Notes: generated by a model from the sequence alone, not told the origin. 64,000 nt of DNA from an uncultured virus (IMG/VR IMGVR_UViG_3300028048_000078) (IMGVR_UViG_3300028048_000078); one strand, 5' to 3'. Counted from the first letter of the stretch, positions 33,501 through 52,979 are shown. Translations and numbers: made by a program.

Positions 33501-34997
33501 GATATTACTAATTGGGAAGAAATTTCTCCAAGCATTTATGAGTGGAAAGACACAACAGATTATTTCATAGACGATATTGTAATCTATAAGAATAATCTTT
33601 ATAGATGTATTGCAGACCATACATCAAGTGCTACTATTGATTTAGATTATATTGATTGGGAATTAATTAGTGGTATTTATGAGTGGGAAACAAATTCTTT
33701 CTATTGTGTTGGAAATGTTGTTTTACATGATAAAGAACTCTATATCTGCAAGATTAAGCACGTTTCTGGTACTTTTGATACAGATGAAACAGCAGGTAAG
33801 TGGGAGCTTCTTAGTTATAAACAAGTAACAGATTGGACAAAGAATACAAAATATTATCCTAATCAGTTAGTAATGAATAGTGGAATTCTCTATAGAGCTG
33901 TTGATAAGCACATAAGTTCTAATGGAGCAAGTGATACTATTATTACTGATATAGCTCATTGGCAACAAGTTTATGCAGGAATAAAGACCTGGAGTGCAAA
34001 TTCTGATTATACTGTTGGTAATGTTGTCATTAATGGGAATAAATTATATCAGTGTACAGTAGCTCATACAAGTACAACTACATTCGATAAGGATAAGTTT
34101 ACATCACTTGATTCTTCTTCATTGATTCCTAATTGGGCAACAAGTACTGTATATCGTGTTGGCGAGACAGTATATTATAATGGTGTGTTATATAGAGCAA
34201 ATGTAAATCACACAAGTAATGCTTCTGCTTGGAGTAATGATGTTGCTAAGTGGGATTTAGTTTATGCAAATATTAGAGACTTTGCTGATAGTACTTACTA
34301 TAAAGCAGGTAGTATCGTTTTAGGTAAGGACAATAAGCTATATAAGGCATTGGCAAATCATACAAGTTCAAGTAGTGACTTACCAACTTGGACTAAGATT
34401 TTAGATGAACATTGGGGCGGTTTGTATAGAAGTAGTGGTGTGACATATCCACCACACCCACAGACAAATACAGTAACATTTGATTTAGGCGCAGTAAAGA
34501 ATATTAGTAGACTTTATTTTGAGCTTAGTGTTTGGGATGGTACAACTAAATCTTATGTAGATGAGTTTACTATAGAATATAGTGTAGACGGAGTAGAGTG
34601 GGAAACTTATACAGATAGTAATAGATATACAGGCACAAGTAATGGTGCTTATCATCCATACATATTTGATTTGAGACCAGATACTAAAGCACAGTATGTT
34701 AAATTTACATTTGTAAATGTTACATTGGGTGCAGGTCAAGGTTCTGGTTGGGGTGGAGAAATTTGGACACAAGACCTTAGAATTTGGGACTATAGTTCAA
34801 CAAATTTCACTCAAATAACTGATATTATGCCTTGGCTGCCAACACATAAGTATTATCAGCATGATATTGTTAAGTATAATGATGAGATGTGGTATGCTAA
34901 AGTAGAGCATACAAGTACATCTGCATTTGTAGAAGATAACTGGGAGCCAATGACAGCATTAGCTTCAGAACAAGATATAAAGGATATGTGGTTGTAA
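30534..34997 (+). CDS. Giant tail fibre/adhesin with ~24 CBM5/12-like (ChiC-BD-like) repeats and two discoidin/F5-8-like inserts
   Basis: Repeats of WxxxTxYxVGDxVxYxxxLYxCxxxHxS...W; IDISTDGTNYT and FDLGAVKNI...IEYSVDGVEW...AQYVKF; RBS GAGGTG then TTG 30534. Confidence 0.8.
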   Translation: MATTKTTNLELRYIQPTDYFISDTFNNILDDIDSKVVGVSHLSSGAHWEVWKKQTDYVRGDIIRTPYLHSNQYLECLQGGKSGTTEPAVNVTGTEFNDGSAKWIVKVLGATDEKTVSIWLAGENYLRGSLVLYNNKLFRCKTPHQSVKFDTDYSKWQEVYASVSPWVANRYYALGDTVIKDNLLYECTTANTDITFTEANWKIVGSISIIKDWAQATDYKENQVVRYRDKLYRANAIHTSGTIFSDNDWTEIYANIPEWKANEQYIVDNVVYYNNIMYICTTSHNSTASFINDIDNWQIFHKLFAFIPTWSANTYYEVGQVVERNGVIYRCKTTNHDGTFTPTNWDILVKAIVDWTSGDYYPVGQYVNYNGTLYKCTTANNDTSFNPAKWEKIGGSGLDDWKTNTNYSVGDYVVTNNLIYKCLIAHKSGTFATDYKDGKWIEVSACTTRINDWVASTDYIVGDLVAHDKKIYRCILAHKSTSDFSADLAHPYWEELSATINEIAVWSASKKFGVGDLVLHDNILYRCTTNHTSGSTFDPSKFAMVGAISVVPNWAKNTTYYKDQIVEYQNTLYRAVDNHKSTNGSYDDFSNDDAHWELVYSNIQPYNNDTWYKVGSIVYQDGYLWRCKQSHKTNTNNVDERTFTIGPDFRNYTLALGQEFTLHNIVLNTSYCGGVDIDISTDGTNYTNLWHSDDAGNVENINCNSAHATHIKFTVLNIFDTPSTGASSGAYQGITSAVISTNNAYWEKLGITAGAITIWQSSKQYDKDEAVFYQNKIYIAKENHLSGSTFDLAKWKYIDPSLLVDWQAETDYYKDQLIYHENIVYRATEDFTSGSTFADTKLERITRGYLATWEANTYYNLGECVVTKSNIIRCLTPHTSGSTYDVAESNNWQIIASSVTVIHKWDKKIEYGIGDVVTHGGILYSCINAHTSPNTSFADDVANWKVINAGIAKWEKETDYAVDAVVTDVNHKLYRCITAHTSGTTDIRDDITNWEEISPSIYEWKDTTDYFIDDIVIYKNNLYRCIADHTSSATIDLDYIDWELISGIYEWETNSFYCVGNVVLHDKELYICKIKHVSGTFDTDETAGKWELLSYKQVTDWTKNTKYYPNQLVMNSGILYRAVDKHISSNGASDTIITDIAHWQQVYAGIKTWSANSDYTVGNVVINGNKLYQCTVAHTSTTTFDKDKFTSLDSSSLIPNWATSTVYRVGETVYYNGVLYRANVNHTSNASAWSNDVAKWDLVYANIRDFADSTYYKAGSIVLGKDNKLYKALANHTSSSSDLPTWTKILDEHWGGLYRSSGVTYPPHPQTNTVTFDLGAVKNISRLYFELSVWDGTTKSYVDEFTIEYSVDGVEWETYTDSNRYTGTSNGAYHPYIFDLRPDTKAQYVKFTFVNVTLGAGQGSGWGGEIWTQDLRIWDYSSTNFTQITDIMPWLPTHKYYQHDIVKYNDEMWYAKVEHTSTSAFVEDNWEPMTALASEQDIKDMWL

Positions 34998-35485
34998 TGA
35001 TAAAAAGAAATCATACCTACAATGTAGGAGATACAGAATACTCTATGGAAGGGTATAAATTAGTTTGTAAGACAGCAGGTACAACAGCCCCTACCCCTAT
35101 TAATATGGGGGGGGGGCAAATCATAACTGACGGAACAGTAGAGTGGGAAGTAACTCTTGGTGAAGATGCTATGCCTAGTGATGTGTATATTAGTTATACC
35201 TTCACACCATCTGTAAGTACATGGAAAAAGACAGAAGAAGTAGCGCCAGCAAATGGTTATTTTATGGTATTTGCTAGTGCAGTAAGAGATACAAATGGAA
35301 TATTGCGTATAGTATCTAGTAGTGGTTTAGAGCAAGCTAGTTATGGTATTTACGATTTAATGGTGTTTATGCCTGTAAAGAAAAATGATATGCTGGCGGT
35401 TTATGGTAGCCATCTGATTGATGAAAACGCAAAGTTTGATTTTTATTATTCAGTAGGAGAAGCAAAGAGGTTAGGTTTGATATGA
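34997..35485 (+). CDS. Poly-G fibre/adhesin cassette 1 (G10, in frame)
   Basis: KRNHTYNVGD...CKTAGTT anchor; G10 at 35107-35116; C-terminal APANG...VKKND...YSVGEAKRLGLI. Confidence 0.8.
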   Translation: MIKRNHTYNVGDTEYSMEGYKLVCKTAGTTAPTPINMGGGQIITDGTVEWEVTLGEDAMPSDVYISYTFTPSVSTWKKTEEVAPANGYFMVFASAVRDTNGILRIVSSSGLEQASYGIYDLMVFMPVKKNDMLAVYGSHLIDENAKFDFYYSVGEAKRLGLI

Positions 35486-35506
35486 ATTTAGTAGAAAAGG
35501 ATGCTA

Positions 35507-35535
35507 TTGACAGATACAGACTTCTATGATATAAT
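35507..35535 (+). promoter_or_regulatory. Consensus promoter
   Basis: TTGACA-N17-TATAAT. Confidence 0.75.
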
Positions 35536-35565
35536 AAAGTAAATTATGAGAAAGGAGATTATATC

Positions 35566-35826
35566 TTGGCAAAAATTTATTATAACATTAATAATCTTGG
35601 TGAGTACACAAATAATGAAAAATTAGCTCAGTTGAAGGTTCGTCAAGGTGATTGGGAAGATTTTGGTGAGTCTGATGAGGAATTTGTAATGCAGTCAGAT
35701 GGTAGTGGTTATGTTAAGAAGAGTGAGTATATTGAACCAGAGATACCACCAGCACCACCTTCTACAGAGGAACAGATTGCAGAAATTCAAGAAACACTTT
35801 TAGCTTTGATGGGTATGGAGGAATAA
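35566..35826 (+). CDS. Small tail-fibre assembly-like protein
   Basis: Acidic, Pro-rich, C-terminal STEEQIAEIQETLLALM; follows fibre genes. Confidence 0.55.
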   Translation: MAKIYYNINNLGEYTNNEKLAQLKVRQGDWEDFGESDEEFVMQSDGSGYVKKSEYIEPEIPPAPPSTEEQIAEIQETLLALMGMEE

Positions 35827-35831
35827 TTTAA

Positions 35832-36008
35832 ATGGCAAGTTTTTTGGCAACAATGTTACAGAAAGGTAAGTTGAAGTGGTCTACTTTAGAGAGTTCTACA
35901 ACTTATGCAAAATACGCAGATGCAGTATTATTGATTTTGGAGAGCAGAGGTTATTGGATTGACCCCGAAGGTAATTGTTCCCCAATTCCAAAGGAGAGTA
36001 AGAAGTAA
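35832..36008 (+). CDS. Small protein (XkdX/CD1375-like), 58 aa, not in ORF track
   Basis: MASFLATMLQKGKLKWSTL...YADAVLLILESRGY; paralog of the next ORF. Confidence 0.6.
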   Translation: MASFLATMLQKGKLKWSTLESSTTYAKYADAVLLILESRGYWIDPEGNCSPIPKESKK

Positions 36009-36166
36009 TGGAAAAATTCTTAGCAACTTGCTTGATAAAGGGAACTCTTTCTTGGGAGTCTCTTAAGGCAAATAAGAAATATAATAGCTATGCTGATAAA
36101 GTATTGGAAGTTCTTGATGAACGTGGTTACAAACTTGACGATGATGGCAAGGTTATAAACAAATAG
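36008..36166 (+). CDS. Small protein, paralog of 35832-36008, 52 aa
   Basis: MEKFLATCLIKGTLSWESL...YADKVLEVLDERGY; RBS AAGGAG; TAATG overlap. Confidence 0.6.
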   Translation: MEKFLATCLIKGTLSWESLKANKKYNSYADKVLEVLDERGYKLDDDGKVINK

Positions 36167-36217
36167 AAAAAAAAATTAGAGGAATGTATTGACATTCCTC
36201 TTTTTCTTTTGTATAAT
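36167..36217 (+). terminator. Terminator hairpin overlapping a consensus promoter
   Basis: A9, agaggaatgt/acattcctct stem, T run; TTGACA 36189-94, N17, TATAAT 36212-17. Confidence 0.75.
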
Positions 36218-36261
36218 AATAACTGTAAGAAGTCAGTAGACAAAGAAAGGATTGGTAGAGT

Positions 36262-39200
36262 ATGGCATTTGTGCATGGCAAAGAATTAAAGGGGACTGAT
36301 AGTGAGTTGCTGGATGGCATTTTGTGGCAGATTGATAAAACAAATGCAAAAGGGTGGGAAACCATGCAGGTTTATACCACTAATACGCAGGAAATGGAAC
36401 TTATTTGTGAGTGGTTTAGTGATTTGGGTTTTATTGTTGATAAAATTGATGGGTGTACTGTATTATTGGGGTGGTTTTTGTGAAGGAAACTGATATTGAG
36501 TTGTTGAGTAGTATTTTACGGTCTATTGACAGAACAAATGCAGAAGGGTTTAAGGCCATTGAGGTTTATACAGCAAATGCGTATAAGATGCATTTAATTC
36601 GTAAGTGGTTTAAGGAATTAGGCTTTAGACTTAATAATATTGATAAGTTTACTGTAGAGTTGATGTGGTAGATTATAGGGGGTGATTAATATGATTATAG
36701 AAATACCAGATTGGTGTGTTATAGGAAAGAAAGTAGAAGTTCTTATGTATGATAAGGATTATTGTAAGTTTGATTGGTTTAAAGAAAAGATTATTTCTTA
36801 TGGTATTGATGGCTTCTTTCATCAAGCATATGGTTGTCCTGTTTATTATGATAAATTTGATAGTTATGGTAAAACTGTTAGAGAAATAGCGTAGTTATGA
36901 GGTGGTAAATTATGTTGAAAGATTATGTTGCGCATGTACTTAATAGTGGTTCAGATGCAGGTAAGTTAAAAAACTTTTTAAATGATGTTGAGAAATTAGA
37001 GAAGAAAAAACGTGAAGTAGAGAAGAGGTTATCTGATATTGATAGAGTCGGGGGAGATAACCATTTCATTTGAAAGAACTCAAACAGAGTATGATAATCA
37101 TGGAGTGTCTATGGCAAGCAACGAATATTCAGACCATATTAATAGCACTTATGACTGTGATTGTTTTGTTGAGATGAAGGAAGTATATATTAAATACTTA
37201 AAGGCTGAGTTAGGAGAAATTAATGCTCAGTTAGATGTTTATTATCTGAAGTTAAATAAGATTGTGGGGTTATTATGAGGAATATAGATAAGATTCAGCA
37301 AATGGAAACAAGAGAGTTAGCACAATTCCTTAATGATAATAATTTTTGTGCAAATTGTTCAGAATATGGTGATGGTGTTGATGGTATAGAGCGGTGGTTA
37401 GAGACAGAGGTAAACCCAGTACCACCATTTAGAACAGGAATGGTAATTATTTATCTTAAAGGTAACTCTTCAATAAGAGATGCAGTTATGTTAGATGATA
37501 GGTGGGCATATGATTTTCGTGTAGGTTTAGTTGATACTATCGAATTGCGGAAAAGTGATAAGGTAGTTGTACGAAAAATTTATGTGTGTGAAGATAGTCA
37601 GTTTAAATTAATTTGGGAGGCAGATTGATGGCATATGGTGATTATGGTGCATATGTATACCGTAATGGTATTCGTATGAAGGATAGAGAAGATGTAGAAG
37701 TATTCCTTGATTCAGATATATTGGCTCACGGTGTAATGGGTGACGGTGATGTAAGAGTAGCTTGTTATAAGCAGGGATTACCTACAATTTTACATCTTGT
37801 AGATGATGGTGAGGCTGAAAAGATTAGTATTGGTGAAGATATTGATATATTTGATTATGGTACAATAAACTTTGAGTATAAAGGTTATTGCTTTGAGTTT
37901 GTTTGTGATAAACCTTATTACGCAAAGATGGTAGAGCCAAGTGGTGTTACTTGGGAATGTAAGTATGATTATTGGTATGGGGCTGGTTTTGATGATGAAG
38001 AAGATTGATGAAATTATTACAAAGCTGGAAGAGATTTCAAGAGAAGATGTTGCAAAAGCATATGAGTTAAACGGAGTAGCATACGCTGTTCTGTCACTGC
38101 CAGAATACCTTAACACAGATTTAAGTTACGAAGCCGAGTTTATGCTTGTAATGGAAAAATGTAATAACAGAAAAAGGCAAATTTTGTTAAAGGCTATAAA
38201 TGAAATTCATAAACTTAATGAAGAGTGTACGGAAGAATTGGAACATATTAAACATATCAAAGAATCCAATGACCGTGTTGAGGTAAAGCTTAAAGCTTTA
38301 GGTCTTTAAATGCAGAGGATGATGCCAATGATTGTATTTGATAAAATAAAGGAAATGCCGATAGAGGAACTTGCACAGTATTTAGTAAGAAATAATGATA
38401 GATTGAAAAATGATGCTTTTGAGTTTTTATCTTCGGAATATATAGGAAAGTCTACACTAGATATATATAGAGTAGATGGATATCATTGTAATAATTGTGG
38501 TGGTAATCGAATTGCTTTCGATAATATGCATTACCCATTTTGTGATGAATGGGGAACAAAATATATGTGTGTTGATTGTGGATATTTCTTCCATGAAACA
38601 AAGGATATTCATACTCTTCCACTATATGATGTATATTATAAGTTATATGTACCAGAATTAGAAGAGAAATTTAATTTACCAAGATGTATAAGAGGACATA
38701 TTCATTTGAGTTGAGGTGGTAAACTATGACAGTAGTACAGGCAATTATAGAGGTTTTTGAAGATTATTTAAGGGAACGTGGTATTGAGATACCTAATGTA
38801 GAAAAAGAAGGTATTGAGGGCGAAGCAATTATTTATGGTACAGATTATGGTGAATTAGAGAGTCAGATAGAAGAAGTATTGACTAGAGCATTTTTCAGAG
38901 ATAGATTAACAACATGGAGATGAGAACAATGAGTAAGAGGTCTTATTGGGATATTATAGATGATTGTGAACACTTTATTGCTAAATGCAGTAATTGTGGG
39001 AATATTGAAGATAGTCGTTTACTTCCAAATAAATGCCCAAAGTGTTCAGCTATAATGAAAAACAGTGAAGGAAATAGTTTAAAGCCTTGTCCATTTTGTG
39101 GCTCAAAGGTTGAATTAAGGGTAGCTACGTGTTTCGATGATAAGGATGGAAATTGTCATGAAATTATTCCTACGCCACAGATTGAATGTAGTTGCGGTTT

Positions 39201-40535
39201 TATCTTTTGGCTAAAAGACCCAAATTGGAATTCATTAGATGAGTTTAAGGCAGAAACCATCAAGGTATGGAACAGGAGGGTTGATGATGGAACAACATTG
39301 GCATGAAGGGTTAGCATATATAACAATAACCCATTATTTCAATGAACATCCTATAGAGAAAAGAATTGGGTGCAGGAGTATCGAAGATATGTATGAGCAT
39401 AGGTATGAGATTATTGATAGTTTAATTAACGAAATTAAATGCTATGAAAAAGAAATTCTAAGGAAACAGTTGACCGAAGATGTTACTCCTGTCAATAGTA
39501 GAGGTATGTATAGGGGGACTGACAATGATTAATGATTGGGTTTCCTTGGAAACTGTAGATGGTGACAAGGTTACTATAAATATTAATAGTTTTGTATGGA
39601 TAAACAAGAGTGAGTTATTTATACATTTGAGTGATTGTTCACGGCTTTATATAACCAAAGAATCTATGAAGTTTTTGTGTGACTTTATTGGTATAACTTG
39701 GAGGGATGATAATGAATAAAGACTATATTCTTAAATTAGCACAGTTGATTAGAGAATATCCGACATTACCAGTAATGGCATGGGTTGATGCGGAGACTCT
39801 TAACTCAGACTTTGACTTTTGTCCATGTGACATTATAGAAGAGCCTCGTATAAAGTGGATATGTCGTAGTGACGACCCGACAGATTTAGAGATATTGGTT
39901 AGTGATACTAAAGAAGATGATGGTTTGGAGTGGGAAGGAGCTATCTGTGTATATATGGAGGGTTAATAATAATGGATAAAGATGATGAATTTTACATATC
40001 ATATTGCGAGAATAACAATGTTAGTTGTTATGAGTGTCCATATATGTATGAATGTCCGATAAGAGAAGAATGTACACTAGAATGAATAGGAGGCTGAAGC
40101 AGGGGGTGAGTAAATGACTAACTTAGAAATTGTATTGATTTACTTTGCTATTTGGTTTAATGTTTACATTAATCATTAGCGAGATAAGAAGAAGTTATCT
40201 TGATAGGGATGATATTCTTTTTGGCACGACTTGTTGGCCTGTGATAATAATAGCCATGATTGGTTGGAGAGTATATCAGAGAATTAAACGGAGGGGTAAT
40301 AGTGAATGAAGAAGTAGTAGTAGTTTCGTTTATTCTTACACTTATTCTTTTTATAATACTGTTGGATAAGCTGTCAATGTTAAAGGAACGGTGTGATGAT
40401 TTAGAGTATCGTGTTCAATCAATAGCGTTAGATGATTATATGGAAAGATTTTTCCAAACTGATGAGCAAAGATTAGATTTGTTACTTAATAAGAAAATTG
40501 AAAGAATTATTGACGATAAAATGAAGTTGGAGTAG
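36262..40535 (+). other. Island of ~15 small hypothetical genes (early/accessory type) inserted in the tail module
   Basis: Tightly packed 60-135-aa ORFs with RBSs; own promoter at 36189 and terminator at 40530. Confidence 0.75.
38914..39306 (+). CDS. Lar-like zinc-ribbon protein
   Basis: CSNCG...CPKC...LKPCPFCGS...WNRR. Confidence 0.7.
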   Translation: MEMRTMSKRSYWDIIDDCEHFIAKCSNCGNIEDSRLLPNKCPKCSAIMKNSEGNSLKPCPFCGSKVELRVATCFDDKDGNCHEIIPTPQIECSCGFIFWLKDPNWNSLDEFKAETIKVWNRRVDDGTTLA

Positions 40536-40554
40536 GTTAAATCCTACTCCTTTT
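40530..40554 (+). terminator. Rho-independent terminator
   Basis: ggagtagg/cctactcc stem plus T4. Confidence 0.7.
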
Positions 40555-40557
40555 AGA

Positions 40558-40586
40558 TTGACTAATTACAGAAAATATGCTATAAT
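40558..40586 (+). promoter_or_regulatory. Promoter of the fibre-cassette operon
   Basis: TTGACT-N17-TATAAT with TG. Confidence 0.75.
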
Positions 40587-40621
40587 GAAGTATATGAATA
40601 AGTTAGAGAGGATGATTATTA

Positions 40622-41124: not shown

Positions 41125-41126
41125 CA

Positions 41127-41873: not shown

Positions 41874-41895
41874 ATAGAAGGAGCTGAGATATAAC

Positions 41896-44800
41896 TTGGC
41901 AAAAAGAATAGATATAGACCTATTAAAGGTTTATGATAAAGAAATGCGAACCAAGGCTATGATACTTCAAAGAAATTTTGATTATTCTTTAGATGATATA
42001 GTTCGTTGGGGAAATGTAAAATTAAAATGTACAACAGCAGGAAAAACTAATTCTACTGCTATTGTACTAACTGGTAAAGTAATAGGTGATACAGTAACAG
42101 ATGGTACTTGTGTATGGGAGTTAGTAGACCCAAATGCAGGTGGCGGTGGTACTGGTGGTGGACAAATTTATTACATAAATCAACCAGTAGGGCATATAGA
42201 ATATGCTTATGAGATTTTAGAAGGTCATTTAATATTAAATGGCTCAACTAAAAATAAAGCAGATTATCCAGAATTAGTAAAGTGGGTAACAGATAATGGT
42301 TTATGGACAAATGATGTAACTGAAATAGGTAAATTTTATGATAGTGGTAGTACAACATTTAATTTACCTAATTATATGGATAGATTTATTAAAGGAAATT
42401 CTACTAGTGGCGATATTTATAAAGATGATTTAGCTACAGGCACAGATGTTGAAAATAAGAGTATAAAGTTAATACCACAAATAAAGTATAGGGCAGACTC
42501 ATTATATAATGTTATTACAGCTTGCTTAGAAAAAGATGAGTTACATACAGAGAGTACATTTAATACTGCCTCAGAAACAATAACTATAGCTAATTTACAT
42601 AGCTACGATTATTTAACAATAACTTATTCATTTAGTCAGAATGGTACAGATATAGATTATACTAATACTGAGTTGTTTAAGACAAATGAGTTAGGCGAAC
42701 ATAATTTATCAATATATATTGATAGTACTGAATATGCTATTTGTGATGGTAAAATAAGTGGTAATGATTTTATTTTTACTCTGTATCAAGTAGCTAAGCT
42801 TACTAACTATAAGATAGATTGTATTAATGGATTTAAAGTAGGTAGGGGCAATAAAGCTTATATACTGGACTGGGAAGAAAATACAAGATATGAGCAAGGA
42901 ACAGTAGTAGTACATGATAATATTTTGTATAGATGTATTATAGCTCATACTTCAACAAGTACCTTTGACGATAATAAATTTATTCCTATTGCTAGTGGTG
43001 AAGGTAAAGGCAGTGAAAAGGTACTTTCAAAGAAACATTTATATGATGAGAGTACATTTAATACAGCCTCTAAGACTATAAATTTAAGTGCAGTAAATAC
43101 ATATAAATATTTATCAAATATGTGCGTAAAACCTCCTAGCTTTAGCTAGAGAGATATAAGCACATTAAGCAGGTAAGCCTATAGGGAAACTTGTAGGTAG
43201 TCATAGCTAACAGCTATGCAACAAAGAAACTGAATTGCTGGAATACCATAAAGCCTATTTCACTACAACATAAACATGAAATAAGGTTAAGTGTGAAAGT
43301 TGCGAAAGCAGAAAAAAGCAAATAGGATAGTGCAAGGTTAAATCCTAAACACTATAAAAAATTGGTAATCAGCAGGTAAGCTCCGAATAGGAGAAACTTC
43401 AACGACTATTCCTCTTGAGGGAAGTACACAGTAAGCTATTGACTGTGGAAGTGGTTTCGCCTAAGTCATAGAAATATGATATGGATAAGATATAGTCTGT
43501 GCTTACATGAAAATGTAAGAAGTTCATAAGAGAACTGCGTAAAAAGTAGCGAATTTACGTGAACTAGACCTCCTAAAGAAGGTTAAAGTTAGAGGGTTCT
43601 ATCTTCCATATTTCTTAAAATGTCTTGACAAATATCGTACATTGTGTTAAGATTATGTTAAGAACTATGAGAGGAGGTGAGCCAGAATGTACTTAGCTGT
43701 AAAACAACAGTTAAATAATCTAAGTAAGAGTGAGTATCTCGTTTTGAGGGAACTTTGTCGTGTGTCTAAGGATTTATATAATCAAGCATTGTATGAAATC
43801 AGACAAGAGTATTTTAGGTCAAAGAAATACTTGAATTACTATGAAGTATATAAGAGATTGCAGAATACAGAAAGTTATGGTCTTTTGCAAGCACAAGTAT
43901 CTCAGCAGACACTTAAATCTGTTGACGATAGTTTCAAGAGTTTCTTTGGCTTAATCAAAAAGAAGTTAAAGGCAAGAATTCCTAAATATCTTGATAAGGA
44001 TGGATTTTTCAAGCTTATAATACCTACTATATCCATTAAGAATGGTAAAATACAGTTACCATATTCTAGGCAGTATGCTAAGAATCATAATAAGATTTAT
44101 CTTAAAGTACCTAGTATACTAAAGGGCAAAGAGGTAAAGCAAGTATGGATAATACCAAGACAAAATGCCAGGTTCTTTGAGGTTCAATACATATATAAGG
44201 TAGAGCCTAAAGAGAAGAAACCAATTAAAAATGTACTGGCAATAGATTTAGGTATAACCAATTTATGTACTTGTGTTACCACAGAAGGTAATTCATTCAT
44301 AATGGACGGTAGAAAGTTGAAATCATTTAATCAATGGTATAATAAAGAAACAAGTAGACTCAGTAGTATTAAGGATAAGCAGAAGATAAAGGGATATACC
44401 AAGAAATTATACAAGATAGTGACTAAAAGGAATAATAGAATTTCTGATATTGTACATAAAACATGTAAGTATATTGTAAATTATTGCATAGATAGTGAGA
44501 TAGACACAATAGTTTGCGGTATAAATAAGGACTTTCAGAGGTATTCAAACTTGGGGAAGGTCAATAATCAGAAATTTACTCAAATTCCTTTTGGTAAGAT
44601 AAGAGACACTCTTAACTATCTCTGTGAATTAAATGGTATAAACTTTATTGAGCAGGAAGAAAGTTATACAAGTAAGGCTAGTTTTTGGGATAGGGATGAA
44701 ATCCCTGTTTATGGTGATTCTAAACAACATAGTTTTAGTGGAGAGCGAATAAAGCGAGGCTTGTACCAAACTTCTAATGGAAAATTACTTAATGCTGACT

Positions 44801-45521
44801 TAAATGGTTCTCTTAATATACTTAGAAAAAGTAATGTTGTGAGCCTAGAGGCTCTATACAGTAGAGGCGTTCTGAATCCGCCATCAAGAATAAGGGTAGT
44901 ATAACTATCAAACTTCTTGTAAATAGAACTCCCTAGCTTTAGCTATGGGGAGGTTCAGCAGTAACTTATGAGGTAACTGATGATACTAATACATACAGTA
45001 ATACAGCTTTAATAGAAACTTCTGAAAGTGGAGAGCATTTACTTACTGTATATGTAGACAGTATGAATTTTGCAGTAATGAGTGCTGAAATTAATGCTGA
45101 TGATTTAATTATTACTAGCTATCAAGTAGCTAATTTAAGTAAGTATAAAATCTTAAGTATTGATGGTATTAAAGAAATTTATGCTGGCGGTGGTGGCGGT
45201 GGAATAGTCCGTTGGAAGGCCAGTGAGAATTATAAAATAGATGATGTAGTATTATGTAGTAGTGAAGTAAATACTAATGAATGGGTAAGCGGTACAAACT
45301 ATGCTATAGATGATATAGTAGTCTATGGCTCATTAGTATATAAATGTATTACAGCAAATTCAGATACTACATTTGATATTGATAAATGGGAATTAGTAAG
45401 AGAAGTCTATACTGTTTTATACAGGTGTATTATAAATAATAATGATAGTACATTTGATGAAGTTAAGTGGGAACAGATAGGTGGCTCTGGTAATGCAGAT
45501 ATAGAGGGGTTGTTTGCTTGA
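41896..45521 (+). CDS. Tail fibre protein interrupted by an IStron; exons 41896-43114 and 44959-45521 (593 aa spliced)
   Basis: Anchor module, collar-like segment (TTFNLPNYMDRFIKG) and CBM repeats; splicing restores an internal repeat (YDYLTITYSF vs YKYLS|VTYEV). Confidence 0.85.
43115..43570 (+). ncRNA. Group I intron catalytic core of the IStron
   Basis: P gaattgctggaa 43232, Q aatcagcagg 43367, R ttcaacgacta 43398, S aagatatagtct 43487. Confidence 0.88.
43687..44904 (+). CDS. tnpB: TnpB RNA-guided nuclease (zinc-finger-less type)
   Basis: LYNQALY, AIDLGITN, QEESYTSKAS, RIKRGLY...NADLNGSLNI; own promoter TTGACA 43625. Confidence 0.92.
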   Translation: MYLAVKQQLNNLSKSEYLVLRELCRVSKDLYNQALYEIRQEYFRSKKYLNYYEVYKRLQNTESYGLLQAQVSQQTLKSVDDSFKSFFGLIKKKLKARIPKYLDKDGFFKLIIPTISIKNGKIQLPYSRQYAKNHNKIYLKVPSILKGKEVKQVWIIPRQNARFFEVQYIYKVEPKEKKPIKNVLAIDLGITNLCTCVTTEGNSFIMDGRKLKSFNQWYNKETSRLSSIKDKQKIKGYTKKLYKIVTKRNNRISDIVHKTCKYIVNYCIDSEIDTIVCGINKDFQRYSNLGKVNNQKFTQIPFGKIRDTLNYLCELNGINFIEQEESYTSKASFWDRDEIPVYGDSKQHSFSGERIKRGLYQTSNGKLLNADLNGSLNILRKSNVVSLEALYSRGVLNPPSRIRVV

Positions 45522-46241
45522 TGCTGAAAAGAAATTATGCTTATAATGTAGGAGACATAGAATACTCAGATGGTGGTGTAAGACTTACTTGTAAGACAGC
45601 AGGAACAACTTCTATAGAAGATTTAGTAATACCACCTAATATTAGTGAAGTAACAGACGGTACAGTAGTATGGTCACTAATAGATATATCGGGGGGGGGG
45701 GAATGACCAAGTAGGTACTATAATACAGTATTTTGGGTCAAATCCCCCTAAAGGATTTTTAAGTTGTGACGGAAGTATTTATAATATTATTGATTATTCA
45801 AGATTAGCTAATCACATTGAGGTAGAGTTTGGAAGTAAGAATTTCTTTGGTGGGGACGGTGTTACAACTTTTGCAGTACCAGACCTTAGAGGTGAGTTCT
45901 TAAGAGGTACTGGTACTAATGGAGCTACTGAAATAAGTGGTAGAAATGTTGGTTATCATCAAGATGCAACAAAACACGTAAATATTGTTGTTAATCGTGA
46001 GGGTGAGCATCTTTTCTTTACAGCTTGTGCAGATGTAGATATTCCTGTTATTGTGCCTCCCGATATATCTATACCAAGTAATGATGGTAAAAATGGTTGG
46101 GTAAGGAATGTAGATTCATATGATGCTCCTAAAAATTCACATGTATGGTCTATGGCTGATGGCACAAATACCACAAAGGAAACTCCTTATTATACTTCCA
46201 GACCAACAAATACTTCTGTATTATTTTGTATAAGGTGGTAG
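45518..46241 (+). CDS. Poly-G cassette 3 (G11, frameshifted): anchor + phage tail collar domain
   Basis: G11 at 45691-45701; G10 reads NDQVGTIIQYFGSNPPKGFLSCDGSIY...GDGVTTFAVPDLRGEFLRG...RPTNTSVLFCIRW*. Confidence 0.85.
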
Positions 46242-46246
46242 ATAAT

Positions 46247-46757
46247 GTGGTAAAAAGAAATTTCAACTACAATGTAGGTAATATAGATTATAATTTAGAT
46301 GGAACAAGATTAGTTTGTAAAGTAGCAGGAACTACAGGAATAGACCCATTAAGAATACCAAGTGGAGCAACAGAAGTTGTAGACGGAACAGTAACTTGGA
46401 GTTTATCAGATGGGGGGGGGGGCAGATTCAATAGCAGAAATGTCTGCTCCCAGTAGTGTTTATGAGAATATAGTTATTAATCATAATGATTGGACAGTAA
46501 ATAACTATACTGCTCCTGCTAATGGTTTTATAATATATACACAGAAAACTACAAACAGTGGTGGTAATATATCCATTAACTTATCTAAGGTTGATGTTAA
46601 TTTTGCAAATTGTACAAAATTGTCTGGTGAAAGGGTTTCTGCCTATTTGGCGGTACGCAAAGGCGATTCTTGTAGTATTCGTAGTGTTTACGGAACAGTA
46701 GAGTCTTGTACGTTTATTTACTCAATAGGCTCAGCAAAGAAATTGGGGTTGATATAA
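46247..46757 (+). CDS. Poly-G cassette 4 (G11, frameshifted)
   Basis: G11 at 46412-46422; G10 fuses the KRNFNYNVG anchor to ...YTAPANG...VRKGD...YSIGSAKKLGLI. Confidence 0.85.
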
Positions 46758-46758
46758 A

Positions 46759-47243
46759 TTGGTAAAAAGAAATCACTCCTACTCAGTAGGAGATATAGAA
46801 TATACGATTGATAATAATAGGTTGATTTGTACACAAGCTGGCACAACATCATCTAGCCCCTTAATTATGGGGGGGGGCAAATAATAGATGGTGGTTGTAT
46901 ATGGGAACGGTTGTCAAATATAGATTATTTGTGGGTTGGCGGTACAACACCATCCACATCAGTACAACAATTAACATTAAGTAAACCGATTAGTCATTTA
47001 TATGATAAGTTGGGTTTTTATTTTGTATATGATACGGGTGGGCTTATCAGACACTTTTATCGTGAGTTTTTGGTAGATGATTATTTATCTTTTGTTCCTA
47101 TGACTGAGGTAAAAATTTCATTCACATGGGGTTATGGTAATGCAGATGATTATTTTGACATTGTTGATGCCTCAACTTCCACTATTTCTTATATTAGTAG
47201 GTATGATTCATTGAAAAGTGTAGTCGGCATTAAAACTATTTAG
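46759..47243 (+). CDS. Poly-G cassette 5 (G9, frameshifted)
   Basis: TTG 46759 VKRNHSYSVGD...CTQAGTT; G9 at 46869-46877 gives a stop; G10 gives MGGGQIIDGGCIWERLSNIDYLW into ORF 46911. Confidence 0.85.
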
Positions 47244-47257
47244 GTAGGTGTAAATAA

Positions 47258-48988
47258 TTGAGTTCAAAAAATATTTATTTTGAAGATTTAGCTGAATATG
47301 ATAGTAAGTTAAAAGAACAAGCTAACATATTACAGAGAAATAAAGATTATTTTGTAGGTACAATAGTAAATAAAGGAAATATATTTTTACGTTGTACAGT
47401 AGCAGGAAAAACAGCAAATACATCAATAGATTTAAGTAGTTATATTATTGGTGATAGAGTAGTATATGGCACAGCAGTATTTGAAGTAATGGACGAAAAT
47501 GGTGAGTGCTTATGGAAGTATGACAATAATGGTAATTTAGTACCAAATGATAGAAGTAATAGACTTCCAATAGGTAAAGCTAATAGTGTACCAAGAAATA
47601 CTACTCTTTATAGATATGCTAGTGGTGATGAATTAGCTAGTACATCAAAAACACTTGCTTTGGGTGATGATGTATTTAAGTTTGATTATATAATTATTGA
47701 AGCTAGGGGTATTCCTTCAAGTGGTTATTCTTTTGAAAAGACATTGATGGTAGCCCCAGAAGGAGATTTAGAGTGGCAATTAAGGTATTCTGAGCCAACA
47801 GTAGACTATTTCTTTAATGTGGCTTTAACATTAGATGCTGGCGGTAGACAAGCATTTGCAACCCTATTAGATAAAGGCAGTACAATAGCTAATGTAGTAA
47901 TAAATAAGATTGTGGGCATAGAATTTGTACCAATGAGTACAGAAAAGTTAATGCAGAATTTAATAGCATCAGCCCCAACATATTATCAAAGAGATAGCTT
48001 GCCTGTATCTAATAAAACAACTATAACAATTAGTAAGACTTGGGTAAATGTCAACAATAGTGGCTTTGTAAATGATGAAAAGACTTTAGACTTAACTAAT
48101 GCAGTAAGTTGGGATAATAATACATATACCACAGCAAGCAATAGAGCAGGTAAAGATTTTTATATCTATGCCTTAGAGACAGGTGAATATATCTTATCAG
48201 CTAACTCAACAGTACCTATAGGCTATACAGCCACAAATAGTAGAAAGATTGGTGGTTTCCATTGTCTTTGTGCAGATGTCGGCACAATTAGTGGGCATAC
48301 ATTGAGTGGTTACTTAGCAGGTGACATTTTACCATTAAGTGTATGGGATTTAAAGCATAGAGCAATAAGTGAAAATGAAGGAATGGTATGGATTCCAGAA
48401 ATTGGGCTTTGGGCAGATATTTATTTATGTAGTTGGAATGGCTCAAATCTTGTAAGTAAGTTTAATCAAGAGTGTGTAACAGGAACATCTACTAAAGCTA
48501 TGCATGGAATAATGATGGCAGAAGAATTAGGTTTAGTAGGAAAAAGACTACCTACTTATGATGAATTTATTGTTTGTGCAAAAGGAAGTCCAGAGGGCGA
48601 CCATATAAGTACAGGAGCAGTACCAACAGGTGCAGGTGGTCATGTAGGAACACTTGGGGCAAGAATAATAAGCAATTACGGATTAGAGGATTGTGTTGGT
48701 GTATTATGGCAGTGGAGTAAAGATACATTTGAGTATACACCAGGTAGTACTTGGAATAGTAACGATTATTGGTTAGGTGGTTTATCGTGGCAAGATAAAC
48801 CAGTATATAACCCTACAGTAGATACAGTAAAACGTGGTTCTTGTAGTGGACTGCTTCGGCGGTTGTTGTTGGGCGGTGGCTATGGTGACGCTTTAGCTAA
48901 TTGCGGTTCTCGGGCGGCTGGTTGTGATAACGTTGGTTCTCGTCTCTATGTTGCTATTGGTGGTCGGGGTTTTTGTGGAGCTAGGTAA
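47258..48988 (+). CDS. DGR target: tail fibre/major tropism determinant-like protein with C-terminal C-lectin (FGE-like) fold
   Basis: AGKDFYIYA, NSRKIGGFHCLC, WADIYL, GKRLPT, SNYGLEDCVGVLWQW; VR at C-terminus; N-terminal anchor module. Confidence 0.92.
   Translation: MSSKNIYFEDLAEYDSKLKEQANILQRNKDYFVGTIVNKGNIFLRCTVAGKTANTSIDLSSYIIGDRVVYGTAVFEVMDENGECLWKYDNNGNLVPNDRSNRLPIGKANSVPRNTTLYRYASGDELASTSKTLALGDDVFKFDYIIIEARGIPSSGYSFEKTLMVAPEGDLEWQLRYSEPTVDYFFNVALTLDAGGRQAFATLLDKGSTIANVVINKIVGIEFVPMSTEKLMQNLIASAPTYYQRDSLPVSNKTTITISKTWVNVNNSGFVNDEKTLDLTNAVSWDNNTYTTASNRAGKDFYIYALETGEYILSANSTVPIGYTATNSRKIGGFHCLCADVGTISGHTLSGYLAGDILPLSVWDLKHRAISENEGMVWIPEIGLWADIYLCSWNGSNLVSKFNQECVTGTSTKAMHGIMMAEELGLVGKRLPTYDEFIVCAKGSPEGDHISTGAVPTGAGGHVGTLGARIISNYGLEDCVGVLWQWSKDTFEYTPGSTWNSNDYWLGGLSWQDKPVYNPTVDTVKRGSCSGLLRRLLLGGGYGDALANCGSRAAGCDNVGSRLYVAIGGRGFCGAR
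48835..48979 (+). repeat. DGR variable region (VR)
   Basis: 145-nt ungapped match to 49053-49197; 24 of 25 mismatches at TR adenines. Confidence 0.95.
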
Positions 48989-49000
48989 AAAAAAAATTAC

Positions 49001-49029
49001 TTGACAATATTTAAATAATATTGTAAAAT
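49001..49029 (+). promoter_or_regulatory. Promoter for TR-RT, overlapping an 8-bp hairpin downstream of VR
   Basis: TTGACA-N17-TAAAAT; acaatatt-taaat-aatattgt at 49004-49024. Confidence 0.7.
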
Positions 49030-49052
49030 ATATATTGTAAGGTTTGCAAGAA

Positions 49053-49197
49053 TGGTTCTTGTAATGGACTACTTCGGCAGTTGTTATTAGGCAGTAACTA
49101 TAGTAACACTTTAGCTAATTGCAGTTCTCAGACAGCTAATTGTAATAACTTTGGTTCTCATCTCAATGTTAATATTGGTAGTCGAGGTTTTTGTGGA
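49053..49197 (+). repeat. DGR template region (TR)
   Basis: AAY-rich copy of VR directly upstream of RT. Confidence 0.95.
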
Positions 49198-49359
49198 TAT
49201 TAGAAGTTTTACTTTTAATATAAATCATGTACGAGGGATAGAGTGAGCGAAACTTCTAAGCTGTCTTGCAAACCGTTCCCTTTGGGAAAAATATTGAACG
49301 AAGAAAGAGTTGGGCTAGTAGGTACAATGTATGCGAAAGTCCGATGATAGAGGTTACTT

Positions 49360-50643
49360 TTGAAGAGATATGGTGATTTGTGGGATAAGATTGTCAGCTA
49401 CGATAATTTATATCTTGCTTATAAGAAGGCTAGGAAAAATAAGGGTTGGCAGAGACAAGTACAAGAAGTTGATGCCGATGTAGAAAATAAGTTATTAGCA
49501 ATACAAGAAATGCTAATCAAAAGGACTTATAAAGTTTCACCTTATAAAAAGAGAGTTATTTTTGAGCCAAAAGAGCGAGATATTTATATCTTACCATTTT
49601 ATCCAGATAGAATTATTCAACATGCTCTGATGAATGTAATAGCTCCTTTGTGGGATAAGATGTTTATAGATACTTCCTATTCTTGTAGAGAAGGTAAGGG
49701 ACAACACAAAGGCGTTAAGAAGTGTGCAGAGTATGTAAGAAAGTACTCATATTGCTTACAAGGTGACATCAGTAAATTCTATCCCTCAATAGTACATGAT
49801 ATACTAATGCGTATAATAAAACGTAAAATAAAGTGCAAGGGAACTTTATGGTTAATAGAAGTAGTAGTAAGGAGCTTTCCCAGTAGAAAGAATGTTCCAA
49901 TAGGTAATTATACATCACAGTGGTTCGGAAATCTTTATATGAATGAGGTTGATAAGTTAGTTAAACAACACTTTCATATTAAAGGCTATATTCGATATTG
50001 TGATGATTTTTTGCTATTTGGAAATAATAAAGTTTACCTACATTATGTAGGTAGGGAAATAAAGATATTTTGCAAGTGCAACTTAGAGTTGAGACTTTCA
50101 AAATTAAGAGTATTTCCAACAGGTAAGGGAGTAGACTTCTTAGGCTATGTTAATAAGGGTAAGTTTTTGCTTCTTAGGAAGTCAACAAAAATAAGGTTTA
50201 AGAGGCGTATAAAGGGATTATGGTATGAAGTAAAGTACGGCTTAGTAGAATTAGATAGAGCTAGAAGCAGTATAGATTCTATCTTAGGTTGGCTGAGTCA
50301 TGCTAATACTTATAAGTTAAAATTGGCTTTGGGCATATATGAATTAAGGGGGTATATAATGCGAGGTCTACCTAAAAACTTAAATACAAAAGAAGATTAT
50401 GCATATCTTAAAGATAATTATGATAAAGAATATTGGTTACCAGCATTTCAAAATTTATTAGATACAAGATATTCTTGGTTTGCTATAGATGAAAAAGATT
50501 ATGTAGAGGACGATAAACATAAAAAGGTTCATAATGAGCAAGAAGATAAAGATGAATATTTTGTATATAAATTAAACAAAAATGCAAAATTATACCAATT
50601 AGGTTTTACAGTAAAAGAGGTGCAAGCTATATGTCGAGAGTAA
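49360..50643 (+). CDS. DGR reverse transcriptase with ~94-aa C-terminal in-frame extension
   Basis: PFYPDRIIQHA, DISKFYPSI, PIGNYTSQWFGN, RYCDDF, GVDFLGY. Confidence 0.95.
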   Translation: MKRYGDLWDKIVSYDNLYLAYKKARKNKGWQRQVQEVDADVENKLLAIQEMLIKRTYKVSPYKKRVIFEPKERDIYILPFYPDRIIQHALMNVIAPLWDKMFIDTSYSCREGKGQHKGVKKCAEYVRKYSYCLQGDISKFYPSIVHDILMRIIKRKIKCKGTLWLIEVVVRSFPSRKNVPIGNYTSQWFGNLYMNEVDKLVKQHFHIKGYIRYCDDFLLFGNNKVYLHYVGREIKIFCKCNLELRLSKLRVFPTGKGVDFLGYVNKGKFLLLRKSTKIRFKRRIKGLWYEVKYGLVELDRARSSIDSILGWLSHANTYKLKLALGIYELRGYIMRGLPKNLNTKEDYAYLKDNYDKEYWLPAFQNLLDTRYSWFAIDEKDYVEDDKHKKVHNEQEDKDEYFVYKLNKNAKLYQLGFTVKEVQAICRE

Positions 50644-51126
50644 AGAGAAATTATGCTTATTCTGTAGGAGATGTAGCTAATGCAATCCCAAATTGGACAT
50701 TAACTTGCACAAAAGCTGGTACTACCTCTACAGATATAATAAACATACAAGCAGGTACTATTATTGATGGTACTTGTGAGTGGAATTGTGTTAATAGTGG
50801 GGGGGGCAGTAAATAACTACTCCACTGAAGAACAAATAGTGGGCACATGGATAGACGGAAAGCCACTGTATCAAAGAACTTATGAAGCTGTTATGCCTAG
50901 TGCAGGTGTCTTGGTAACACTATCAGCAGATATAATTGTTCGAGATATAAGTGGGTATGTTGATAATAGTGGTGTGAATCAAATTCCAATTGGTTCATAT
51001 TTTGCTTCTAATAATTTTGTGCAGGTATATATTGATAACACTAATCATGTGATTAATGGTGTCAATCAAGGTTATCCTTCTAAGCCTTGTTACATCACAA
51101 TACAATACACAAAAACAACAGATTAG
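50631..51126 (+). CDS. Poly-G cassette 6 (G8, frameshifted)
   Basis: KRNYAYSVGD...CTKAGTT anchor; G8 at 50799-50806; G7 or G10 reads into NYSTEEQIVGTWIDGKPLYQRTY...IQYTKTTD, a phage fibre-type module. Confidence 0.85.
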
Positions 51127-51143
51127 AAATTAGGTGATATAAA

Positions 51144-51628
51144 TTGGTAAAAAGAAATCACTCTTATAATATAGGAGAGGTAGTAGAAGCTACTGGTGGT
51201 TATTTATTAAAGTGTAAAATAGCAGGAACAACAGACTCTAACCCTATTATTATAGGGGGGGGGCAGAATTAGTTGATGGAACAGTAACTTGGCAAGTTAT
51301 TGATGATGGAGATATGCCTAGTGATATATTTTTAATGGAAACCTCATCAGTAGTTGATGGTTTGTATAATGTTCCGTATGATGGTTATGTAACTTTGCTA
51401 GGTAAGCTTAGTGGTGCATCTGGTGCTACATTGAGAAATTCTAATAATAGTTGGTTGGGTGGGTGTAATTTTTTTAGTGTTAATAATAGTGAATTGGGTA
51501 ATTATTCCATTAATACTATATCAGTTAAGCAAGGACAAAATATTTGTGTTTATCCACCAATGTTGTCAGATTTTCAGTTAAGGTTTATCCCATCAATAAA
51601 ATCAGCTAAGAAACTAGGACTATTGTAA
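51144..51628 (+). CDS. Poly-G cassette 7 (G9, frameshifted)
   Basis: RBS AGGTG, TTG 51144 VKRNHSYNIGE...CKIAGTT; G9 at 51255-51263 gives a stop; G10 gives GGGAELVDGTVTWQVIDDGDMPSD into ORF 51314. Confidence 0.85.
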
Positions 51629-51664
51629 AAACCAGTATAATTGAGTTAAAGGGGGTGAAATAAA

Positions 51665-52765: not shown

Positions 52766-52779
52766 ATTATAGATAAAAC

Positions 52780-52940: not shown

Positions 52941-52950
52941 TGTAATAGGT

Positions 52951-52979
52951 TTGACAAATATATAGTTTTATGTTATAAT
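52951..52979 (+). promoter_or_regulatory. Consensus promoter upstream of lysis genes
   Basis: TTGACA-N17-TATAAT with TG. Confidence 0.8.

Follow-up and report, generated by a model that had tools for sequence, protein, structure and literature searches.

We analysed a 64,000-nucleotide stretch of DNA from an uncultured virus (IMG/VR IMGVR_UViG_3300028048_000078), referred to below as the window, and describe in it an array of fibre-tip genes that carry runs of G. Each run is uninterrupted and codes for a loop or linker of two to four glycines between a conserved module and a variable head. The reading frame depends on the length of the run, both longer and shorter runs occur in other assemblies, and the heads are conserved. 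A preliminary description of the same DNA had read the locus, at 34997–51628, as an array of contingency cassettes; in support of that reading, the inferred run lengths vary and the domains behind the tracts are not decaying. We consider it probable that the window holds seven independent slipped-strand (contingency) switches, acting on modular receptor-binding tips in the distal-tail module of an uncultivated phage of the bovine gut or rumen.

Seven G runs in one array of fibre-tip genes

The window contains seven G runs of 8–11 bases, all on the plus (coding) strand and all between 35.1 and 51.3 kb. Six of them lie in paralogous genes on that strand, which we call cassettes: cassette 1 (34997–35485, G10 at 35107–35116), cassette 2 (45521–46241, G11 at 45691–45701), cassette 3 (46247–46757, G11 at 46412–46422), cassette 4 (46759–47243, G9 at 46869–46877), cassette 5 (50631–51126, G8 at 50799–50806) and cassette 6 (51144–51628, G9 at 51255–51263). 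The seventh, a G9 at 41201–41209, is found in a fibre-tip gene of 248 residues (41127–41873, plus strand) whose N-terminus differs (LNLGAKNNRFDT...). It adjoins an ATG at 41199, the G of which belongs to the run, and the gene follows the same logic as the cassettes: a short N-terminal part, a glycine run and a variable body. By the definition of a homopolymer (simple sequence repeat, SSR) contingency locus as an uninterrupted mononucleotide run of about 7 bases or more within a reading frame, there are seven such loci here.

These seven are the sole G or C homopolymers of at least 7 bases across the 64 kb; C runs of this length are absent, while there are three A runs and four T runs. A scan of the window thus returned exactly the seven positions and lengths listed in the preliminary description, including its claim that the run at 41201 was the only other one of at least 8 G. 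The G8 pattern has 18 overlapping matches, compared with a mean of 0.41 and a maximum of 4 in dinucleotide-preserving shuffles, none of 100 of which reached 18. Moreover, GGG is the rarest glycine codon in 25 genes of the phage (77 of 987 glycine codons, 7.8%), and it accounts for none of the 32 glycine codons in nine other stretches of at least three glycines, all in non-cassette genes. This agrees with the earlier remark that neighbouring poly-glycine linkers use mixed codons, and the multi-kilobase open reading frames (ORFs) that it called intact are indeed unbroken at 2906, 1502 and 1220 residues. Homopolymers of A7–A10 and T8–T10 also occur in the window without frameshifts. On these sequence statistics, the tracts look selected rather than accidental.

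Run length selects between full-length and truncated products

A script that varied the run length found that all six cassettes read through at G7, G10 and G13 only, as expected from the earlier claim that G10 would place every anchor in frame with a stop-free C-terminal domain. The lengths actually present are, in cassette order, 10, 11, 11, 9, 8 and 9, so that cassette 1 is ON and cassettes 2–6 are OFF; that only the gene at 34997 has a G10 had also been seen correctly. At G10 the products would have 162, 239, 169, 161, 165 and 161 residues. As written they have 162, 61, 69, 41, 61 and 42, since out-of-frame lengths halt translation within about 13 codons. Run length therefore decides between a full-length (161–239 residues) and a truncated (41–69 residues) product, as in a contingency locus. 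For the tract of the seventh gene (41127) the in-frame lengths are 6, 9 and 12, and the G9 present here is in frame.

In cassettes 1, 4 and 6 the run is part of the module, where it occupies the loop preceding DGTVxW (DGTVEW in cassette 1); in cassettes 2 (module 45521–45690), 3 and 5 it follows directly after the module. In both arrangements G10 supplies Gly-Gly-Gly plus one base of the adjoining codon. The cassette starts overlap or abut the upstream stop, for example as TAATG at 34997, where the stop is that of a 1502-residue tail fibre, and as TGATG at 45521, which suggests that translation is coupled.

Run lengths differ between assemblies

The 24 sequencing runs considered consisted of assembled contigs, and shares below 0.2 as well as uncovered parts were left out of the evidence. 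In the probable source run (X1), Logan contigs span six of the tracts with no other letters and no gaps. The contigs break at the 45691 run, which is a weak hint of length variation. In run X24 a relative's contig ends at 50806; in run X2 a longer contig aligns up to the same base, and an alignment restarts exactly at 51255.

A phmmer search with cassette 1 against 1.84 billion representative proteins gave 42 proteins, and a module profile search gave 25 proteins of 19–102 residues and 94 longer ones, with more added from cluster members. Pfam domains listed for the 94 longer proteins include Collar, PF03906, CBM_5_12 and Gp53-like_C. We took a census of 73 distinct public sequences with a module at least 80% identical to one in the window; its rows are sequences, not independent samples. 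Of these, 43 end 0–13 residues past the glycine run, and the other 30 read through. In 26 of the truncated sequences the tail is one of the window's own shifted frames (for example ...SGGGGMTK, ...IGGGGRISRWNSNLASY, ...DGGGRFNSRNVCSQ and ...MGGGANHN), and in these the change of frame lies in the run.

Lengths inferred from the glycine count and the frame of the tail ranged from G5 to G15, in and out of frame. They were 8, 10 and 11 for cassette 1; 7 (interrupted), 9, 10, 11 and 12 for cassette 2; 5, 7, 8, 9, 10 and 11 for cassette 3; 8, 10 and 13 for cassette 5, with read-through orthologues at G10 (three sequences) and G13 (one); and 7, 9, 10, 11, 12, 14 and 15 for cassette 6. For cassette 4 no public module was at least 80% identical, and a pair at 65% identity comprises one truncated (P0015) and one read-through (P0188) form. 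Public variants of the seventh tract read MGGGV, MGGGGV and, in a shifted frame, MELWGGGGV; P0195, at 224 residues (248 minus 24), matches the window from 41199 by eye. Read-through forms with two, three or four glycines all occur, because the run codes for glycines. The preliminary description had proposed a comparison of tract lengths in relatives, and had held that its reading would fail if all of them had G10; the orthologues instead scatter as given above.

The switches also seem to take different positions on individual contigs. P0163, from a 67,911-base contig, corresponds to cassette 2 of the window at G10 (239 of 239 residues), and on the same contig cassette 3 is OFF, as in the window. 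Cassettes 2, 3 and 6 are listed as OFF on a 36,478-base contig. On a 14,034-base contig cassette 2 and a head of the cassette 6 type are listed as ON and cassette 5 as OFF, and on a 154,396-base contig cassette 1 is listed as ON and cassette 5 as OFF. These sequences suggest that the combinations of ON and OFF differ between contigs.

Tracts and OFF heads are maintained

The two closest IMG/VR relatives, L001 and L002, encode a major tropism determinant (Mtd)-like protein 87–89% identical to that of the window; for cassettes 2 and 3 and the 41127 gene they have orthologues that are in frame. Their entire contigs (45,052 and 65,648 bases, 110.7 kb in total) contain no G or C run of at least 7 bases. 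One of three homologous tract places reads AGGGGGA (G5). At the cassette 3 place, L002 has GGTGGTGGGG, which is also 10 bases long, and L001 has no run; at the place of the 41127 gene, the L001 orthologue has GGTGGTGGCGGT. Because the relatives have mixed codons, a G5 or no run, the pure runs must have arisen in the window's lineage by substitutions towards G at several separate joints, and such substitution is not how a sequencing artefact would be expected to behave.

The five OFF heads are free of stops in the shifted frame over 105–179 codons. In an off-frame control on seven long genes, the longest open stretch was 98 codons, and none of 15,890 positions was open for 105. Over the 72 post-tract codons that can be compared between cassette 2 and these two relatives, we counted 16 synonymous and 4 non-synonymous differences from L001, and 18 and 3 from L002, giving a ratio of non-synonymous to synonymous rates (omega) of 0.052 and 0.033, respectively. 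This ratio could be given for cassette 2 only, since the other heads diverge from L001 and L002 within about 12 codons. A dN/dS comparison had been among the checks proposed in the preliminary description, which named decay of the downstream domains as the other outcome that would speak against it; with five heads open and omega at 0.03–0.05 against in-frame orthologues, decay was not what we found.

A shared N-terminal module

The six cassettes open with a module of about 55 residues, (M/V)xKRNxxYxVGD...LxCxxAGTT...DGTVxW, and the six copies make up repeat family D1. Across their alignment, K-R-N, Y, G, L, C, A-G and T are invariant. The family described earlier as an anchor of six genes is therefore real, but it is not confined to them: the module also opens the target gene of a diversity-generating retroelement (DGR) at 47258 and a 417-residue collar protein at 41896, in each case after about 24 extra residues.

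The complete modules of cassettes 2, 3 and 5, scanned alone, gave no match to Pfam CBM_5_12 (PF02839) at E ≤ 1, and PHROGs likewise yielded no usable match for the modules. An hhalign comparison of the six modules with the 15 CBM5/12-type repeats of the 1502-residue fibre gave a probability of 80% (E 1.4e-5, 29 columns). The module may be distantly like these repeats. In an AlphaFold2 (AF2) model of cassette 1, the corresponding residues 1–54 superposed on residues 589–640 of the Pam1 cyanophage tailspike (7eea_A) with a Z of 7.9 and a root-mean-square deviation (rmsd) of 1.6 Å over 52 residues at 21% identity. Since the module is N-terminal and is present on eight different tips, including the DGR target, we infer by analogy that it docks the tips on the tail or on the 1502-residue fibre; alternatively, it may bind sugar.

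A query with the DGR reverse transcriptase (RT) gave 77 loci at 54% identity or less, and two motif scans found the module in none of them. Cassette 1 alone had no match in IMG/VR, and the module alignment retrieved only the two contigs already given by the Mtd query; against metagenome contigs the module alignment had no match. Among the matches listed for a query of metagenome contigs with P0087 there were 13 loci, all distant, in which G or C runs of at least 8 bases were absent and a single G7 was present. A tblastn search of 50,697 phage records with cassette 1 found no match, and megablast of 34900–52000 against the phage collection matched in an intron region only, in one Clostridioides phage and two Listeria phage records at 75–79% identity.

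Heads and predicted structure

Cassettes 1, 3 and 6 and the 41127 gene have a common head that ends in ...AK(R/K/A)LGL(I/L). It ends in ...AKRLGLI in cassette 1 and reads MPS...AKKLGLI in cassette 3, MPS...AKKLGLL in cassette 6 and MPS...AKALGLL in the 41127 gene. The head of cassette 2, in the G10 frame, is a Phage Tail Collar domain (PF07484, E 1.4e-15, 57.4 bits with a cut-off of 24), and 18 of the 23 PHROG families that it matched belong to the tail category. The five heads other than that of cassette 2, among them the head of cassette 4 and the YSTEEQ...IQYTKTTD type of cassette 5, matched no family in Pfam or PHROGs at the thresholds used. The ESM Atlas gave a lead to Gp53-like_C for cassette 5 (score 0.90) and leads for cassette 1 (features 0.76, structural TM score < 0.5), which we treat as leads only.

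The AF2 model of cassette 1, built from 17 aligned sequences, had a mean pLDDT (predicted local distance difference test) of 87.6 and placed a jelly roll at residues 56–155 behind the small beta domain of residues 1–54. The best matches of the jelly roll were Tk-SP, C1q/TNF heads, the Bdellovibrio Bd2133 fibre tip, PRD1 P5 and the receptor-binding protein (RBP) head of lactococcal phage Tuc2009, with middling Z scores of 8.5–6.6. Influenza haemagglutinin heads, the top rows of a Foldseek search against the PDB, superposed with an rmsd of 17–19 Å and were disregarded.

Modelled as a homotrimer, cassette 1 scored 0.87 compared with 0.17 for the best control, with a run agreement of at least 68% and a partner pLDDT of at least 81. 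The predicted interface lies within residues 53–158, and assembly is predicted to run through the head and not the module. In a calibration that was carried out on two copies, 20 of 30 solved same-chain pairs and 1 of 23 single chains reached this mark. The model supports a trimer, then, and does not show one. By analogy and on these models, the heads may trimerise and act as receptor-binding tips, and the term 'plug-in adhesin' used in the preliminary description would draw indirect support from the module shared with a DGR-diversified Mtd-like protein, from the collar head and from the trimeric jelly-roll model.

In P0066–P0071, P0075, P0077, P0162, P0002 and P0187, the same module type is combined with different heads, and module and head meet at the glycine run or next to it. 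This suggests that heads are exchanged at the joint.

A DGR and mobile elements in the same locus

The DGR that had been reported as interleaved with the array is real. Its parts, all on the plus strand, are an Mtd-like target gene (47258–48988; mtd_2nd, E 2.6e-19) with a variable repeat (VR) at 48835–48979, a template repeat (TR) at 49053–49197 that is 83% identical to the VR, and the RT gene (49360–50643; RVT_1, E 3.4e-17; phrog_1423, E 4.5e-113); no search was made for an accessory (Avd-like) gene. Of the 25 mismatches between TR and VR, 24 fall at adenines of the TR, and at 22 of these 24 the VR has G in place of A, which makes the spectrum unusually one-sided compared with other DGRs.

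Runs were also seen in other DGR-bearing viral contigs, with an RT about 50% identical. L039 has a G8 at 2181 alone. A G8 and a C10 lie about 1.05 kb apart downstream of the RT in L040 (2271 and 3322), L042 (6158 and 7209) and L079 (7765 and 8816), and L046 has a C8 at 5097, before the RT. These are possible contingency runs in unrelated DGR phages.

The module-bearing collar gene at 41896 is split by an insertion. Exon 1 (41896–43114, plus strand; the ORF as written continues to 43149, giving the 417 residues) encodes the module, a mixed-codon GGGGTGGG linker and the collar domain, and exon 2 (44959–45521, plus strand; annotated ORF 45063–45521, 152 residues) encodes a mixed-codon Gly6 linker and a CBM5/12-type repeat. 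The insertion between them (43115–44958, plus strand) holds a group I intron (43173–43519; RF00028, 53.6 bits with a gathering score of 50, E 2.7e-12) and a tnpB gene (43687–44904; OrfB_IS605, E 5.9e-27; Cas12f1-like_TNB). An Rfam scan of the entire window at the gathering threshold gave no matches, and the intron was found above the gathering score in a later, narrower e-value scan. The joint of 43114 to 44959, lacking 43115–44958, was present in relatives' contigs in three of four runs (X24, X2 and X3), and joining the exons opens a frame of 593 residues. With a group I ribozyme, a tnpB, an insert-free allele and exons in frame, the element is IStron-like by its sequence, and splicing is predicted.

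A second tnpB of the IS605 family lies just beyond the array (51665–52765, plus strand; Pfam OrfB_IS605, TNB and HTH), with no group I intron found beside it in 51400–53150. P0005, an orthologue of cassette 6 from another sample, departs from the head early and ends in a tail that resembles a frame of the 36 bases preceding this second tnpB, as if a copy of tnpB had inserted inside the head there.

Gene content and setting of the window

The window has a GC content of 33% and a strong skew of G over C, and its plus strand holds all large ORFs. Besides a tape-measure-like protein of 2906 residues, Pfam and PHROG scans identified tail-tip proteins (Phage-tail_3, BR0599 and DUF2460), a GH25 lysin, a helicase and an anaerobic ribonucleotide reductase. 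The window covers the tail and early genes of a large siphovirus-like phage that has not been cultivated. A 128,368-base contig carries the window's own proteins in the public protein collection, and the sequencing runs that hold window sequence are labelled as bovine gut or bovine metagenomes. A Christensenellaceae metagenome-assembled genome that came up as a host pointer in a genome-contig search had a match of 15 residues only, too weak to name a host.

The 1502-residue long tail fibre (30489–34997, plus strand) precedes cassette 1 and has 15 CBM_5_12 stretches (E 5.3e-112), an F5_F8_type_C domain (E 5.4e-13) and matches to PHROG tail fibre families. Behind cassette 1, about 20 small ORFs of 50–134 residues are packed into 35500–40560, where the G skew reaches the window maximum of 0.495. 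This block contains perfect sigma-70-type promoters at 35507 and 36189, terminators at 36178 and 40529, a Lar-like ORF by PHROG at 38914 (another is at 9615), and a tandem duplication of 187 bases at 71% identity (36289–36475 and 36483–36669) that spans two small ORFs. In L001 and L002 the homologous start of the block comes after the Mtd gene, so that the locus has been rearranged between relatives. The ribonucleotide reductase gene nrdD is split into ORFs at 57608–58462 and 59596–60864, with a GIY-YIG/NUMOD3 homing-endonuclease gene between them (58600–59385) and a weak group I intron match at 59459–59571 (26.4 bits, E 2.6e-4). A tRNA scan of the window found none.

Discussion

We propose that polymerase slippage during replication of the phage DNA would add or remove G at a high rate, so that each cassette would flip between ON and OFF independently and a single burst could release virions with differing sets of tips. 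Flexible glycines in the run would make in-frame changes of length structurally free of cost, and the products, as virion tips, would alter adsorption. In the same locus one tip would be varied by the DGR, and another tip gene carries a predicted self-splicing type of intron with tnpB.

Four other explanations were considered. If the tract lengths were homopolymer miscalls, all six tracts would really be G10 and all cassettes ON, with 8, 9 and 11 as errors in a consensus built from few reads. The probable source run does have a depth of only about 9–12, long G runs are error-prone, and the 45691 tract is discordant (G11 in the window, G10 implied by P0163, a break in Logan). The Logan contigs of the probable source, however, span the other six tracts unchanged, the OFF products of cassettes 3 and 5 recur in sources from JGI, Logan and ENA, and the runs of A7–A10 and T8–T10 and the multi-kilobase ORFs are without frameshifts. 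Differences of 3–6 bases between orthologues (G8 and G11, G9 and G15) are no error pattern, and errors would leave the substitutions towards G unexplained; we consider miscalling very improbable. We rate as highly unlikely that the five OFF cassettes are instead recent pseudogenes of redundant paralogues, with accidental tracts. That view could point to the OFF state of five of the six, to the lack of cassettes 4–6 next to Mtd in L001 and L002, and to the truncation of 43 of the 73 public forms. Yet no head has a further stop or indel over its 105–179 codons, the omega of the cassette 2 head is 0.03–0.05, and pure GGG runs stand at seven separate joints despite the codon bias. Read-through forms of the same cassettes also exist in other contigs, with lengths that scatter on both sides of the in-frame value.

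Switching could also take place above the DNA. Long homopolymers can cause transcriptional slippage, which is established for A and T runs, and with a fairly stable DNA length either slippage of RNA polymerase or ribosomal frameshifting would yield some full-length protein from OFF alleles. It would explain why heads whose cassettes the consensus shows as OFF are under purifying selection. It would however need both +1 and −1 corrections, at different cassettes, and the public proteins imply length differences between assemblies at the DNA level. We think it very unlikely as the whole explanation, but the two are compatible, and slippage or frameshifting at the RNA level could add to a DNA switch. 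Finally, the G-rich glycine joint might serve first of all as short homology for head swaps, with frameshifts as a by-product. Of 19 sequences with a cassette 2-type module, 7 continue into a YSTEEQ-type head, through junctions that look like degraded G runs (SRGWGGEA, SRGGA and SVGGGEA); P0162 combines the cassette 2 module with a shifted frame of the cassette 3 head, and P0002 a cassette 3-type module start with the joint of cassette 6 and a head of the cassette 6 family; and contig alignments of relatives stop and restart exactly at 50806 and 51255. Swapping, on the other hand, needs no pure homopolymer, relatives with mixed codons also have different heads, and selection of GGG against the codon bias is explained less well than by a switch. 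As the primary role we find this hardly credible, although the two roles can coexist.

Several points weigh against the proposed slipped-strand switches on receptor-binding tips. The data are at the level of contigs, with a depth of about 10× (9–12) for the run that is probably the source, and they therefore compare assemblies and not the members of one population. The inferred lengths were read from peptides, not DNA, and some truncated public ORFs may reflect contig ends or errors in the assembly of homopolymers. Census rows P0074, P0164, P0173, P0181 and P0174, and perhaps P0163 and P0175, derive from the same contig as the window or possibly from the same sample. Because the consensus shows five of the six cassettes as OFF, and L001 and L002 manage without pure tracts, the cassettes are individually dispensable. 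The location in the virion, the docking of the module and the binding of receptors are argued from analogy and models. The fold matches of the head reach a Z of at most 8.5, where unmatched models typically reach 7–8, and a Foldseek search of the PDB with the cassette 1 model gave none at E ≤ 0.001.

We know of experimental proof for poly-G phase variation in phage receptor-binding genes in Campylobacter phages only; there, in the Fletchervirus phages studied by Sorensen and colleagues (Cell Rep, 2021), two of four RBPs are said to switch. Excerpts of published accounts describe tracts of 7–11 G in Fletchervirus RBPs (10.1101/2025.10.21.683753; PMC11959909; PMC12823448), and in one of these excerpts poly-G phase variation in phages is still called exceptional (PMC11959909). 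The present locus resembles that system, as these excerpts present it, in having G runs of similar length inside phage genes for receptor-binding proteins, here putative ones; there slippage gives rise to phenotypically mixed populations. The cassettes, however, show no sequence relation to the Fletchervirus RBPs in the tblastn search of the phage collection with cassette 1 and do not belong to that family. Here a single array of small paralogous cassettes, which share a module, contains seven tracts, each tract at a glycine loop or linker between domains, in a bovine-gut phage with a GH25 lysin and with a DGR and an intron in the same locus.

As in the bacterial contingency loci of Campylobacter, Neisseria and Haemophilus and in phages T2 and T4, homopolymer slippage would produce reversible frameshifts and hence bet-hedging. 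Contingency loci in T2 and T4 are reported in a preprint by Gomez, Barrick and Waters (10.1101/2025.10.21.683753), which also gives repeats of at least 6 bases as under-represented in the tail fibres of 41 coliphages (0.77×). In contrast to that survey, repeats in the form of G runs concentrate here in tail-fibre tips and nowhere else in 64 kb. The DGR is like that of Bordetella phage BPP-1 (Mtd) in that a tail-fibre tip is diversified, with an Mtd second domain, an RT and TR/VR present here. A DGR changes residues within a single binding site, whereas the G tracts would toggle whole alternative heads.

In phages Mu and P1, tail-fibre segments are inverted by site-specific recombination (Gin/Cin) between two alternatives. 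The cassettes are similar in pairing a constant N-terminal part with alternative C-terminal host-range parts through a stochastic DNA switch, but the window encodes no invertase and would hold seven independent on/off switches. The multi-RBP 'branched' adsorption machines of phage CBA120 (TSP1–4) and Klebsiella phage PhiK64-1 are all constitutively expressed. They too consist of several RBPs with a conserved N-terminal docking part and differing distal domains, whereas in the present locus every cassette would be controlled by a hypermutable run and codes for a very small protein of about 160–240 residues. The Mu invertible system is cited in PMC12823448.

The novelty appears to lie in how the parts are arranged: small paralogous tips that share a module bear seven switches at glycine joints, in an unrelated gut phage lineage and beside a DGR and a mobile intron. 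A literature search, mostly of titles and the openings of abstracts, found no such array described for rumen or gut phages. More speculatively, and with clearly less confidence than we place in the switches themselves, the poly-G/glycine joint may be a dual connector, serving both as a per-gene switch (2^7 = 128 phasotypes) and as micro-homology for the exchange of heads between modules or phages. If that were true, the locus would, together with the DGR and the intron–tnpB element in the same 17 kb, amount to a three-layer host-range engine that chooses, shuffles and rewrites tips. On the same reading, cassettes 2, 3 and 5, which still make a complete module when OFF, might cap docking sites with it and so set the number of copies of each tip per virion.

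In automated annotation, loci of this kind would be mistaken for a series of tiny hypothetical ORFs. Placing the run in a glycine linker suggests a design rule by which in-frame changes of length are harmless, and three mechanisms of diversification, namely SSR switching, a DGR and a mobile intron, stand side by side. The array would be a much more elaborate natural case than the Campylobacter phages, with evidence across samples that the switches take different positions, and it would offer a testable system for how phage populations hedge across hosts or across phase-variable host surfaces.

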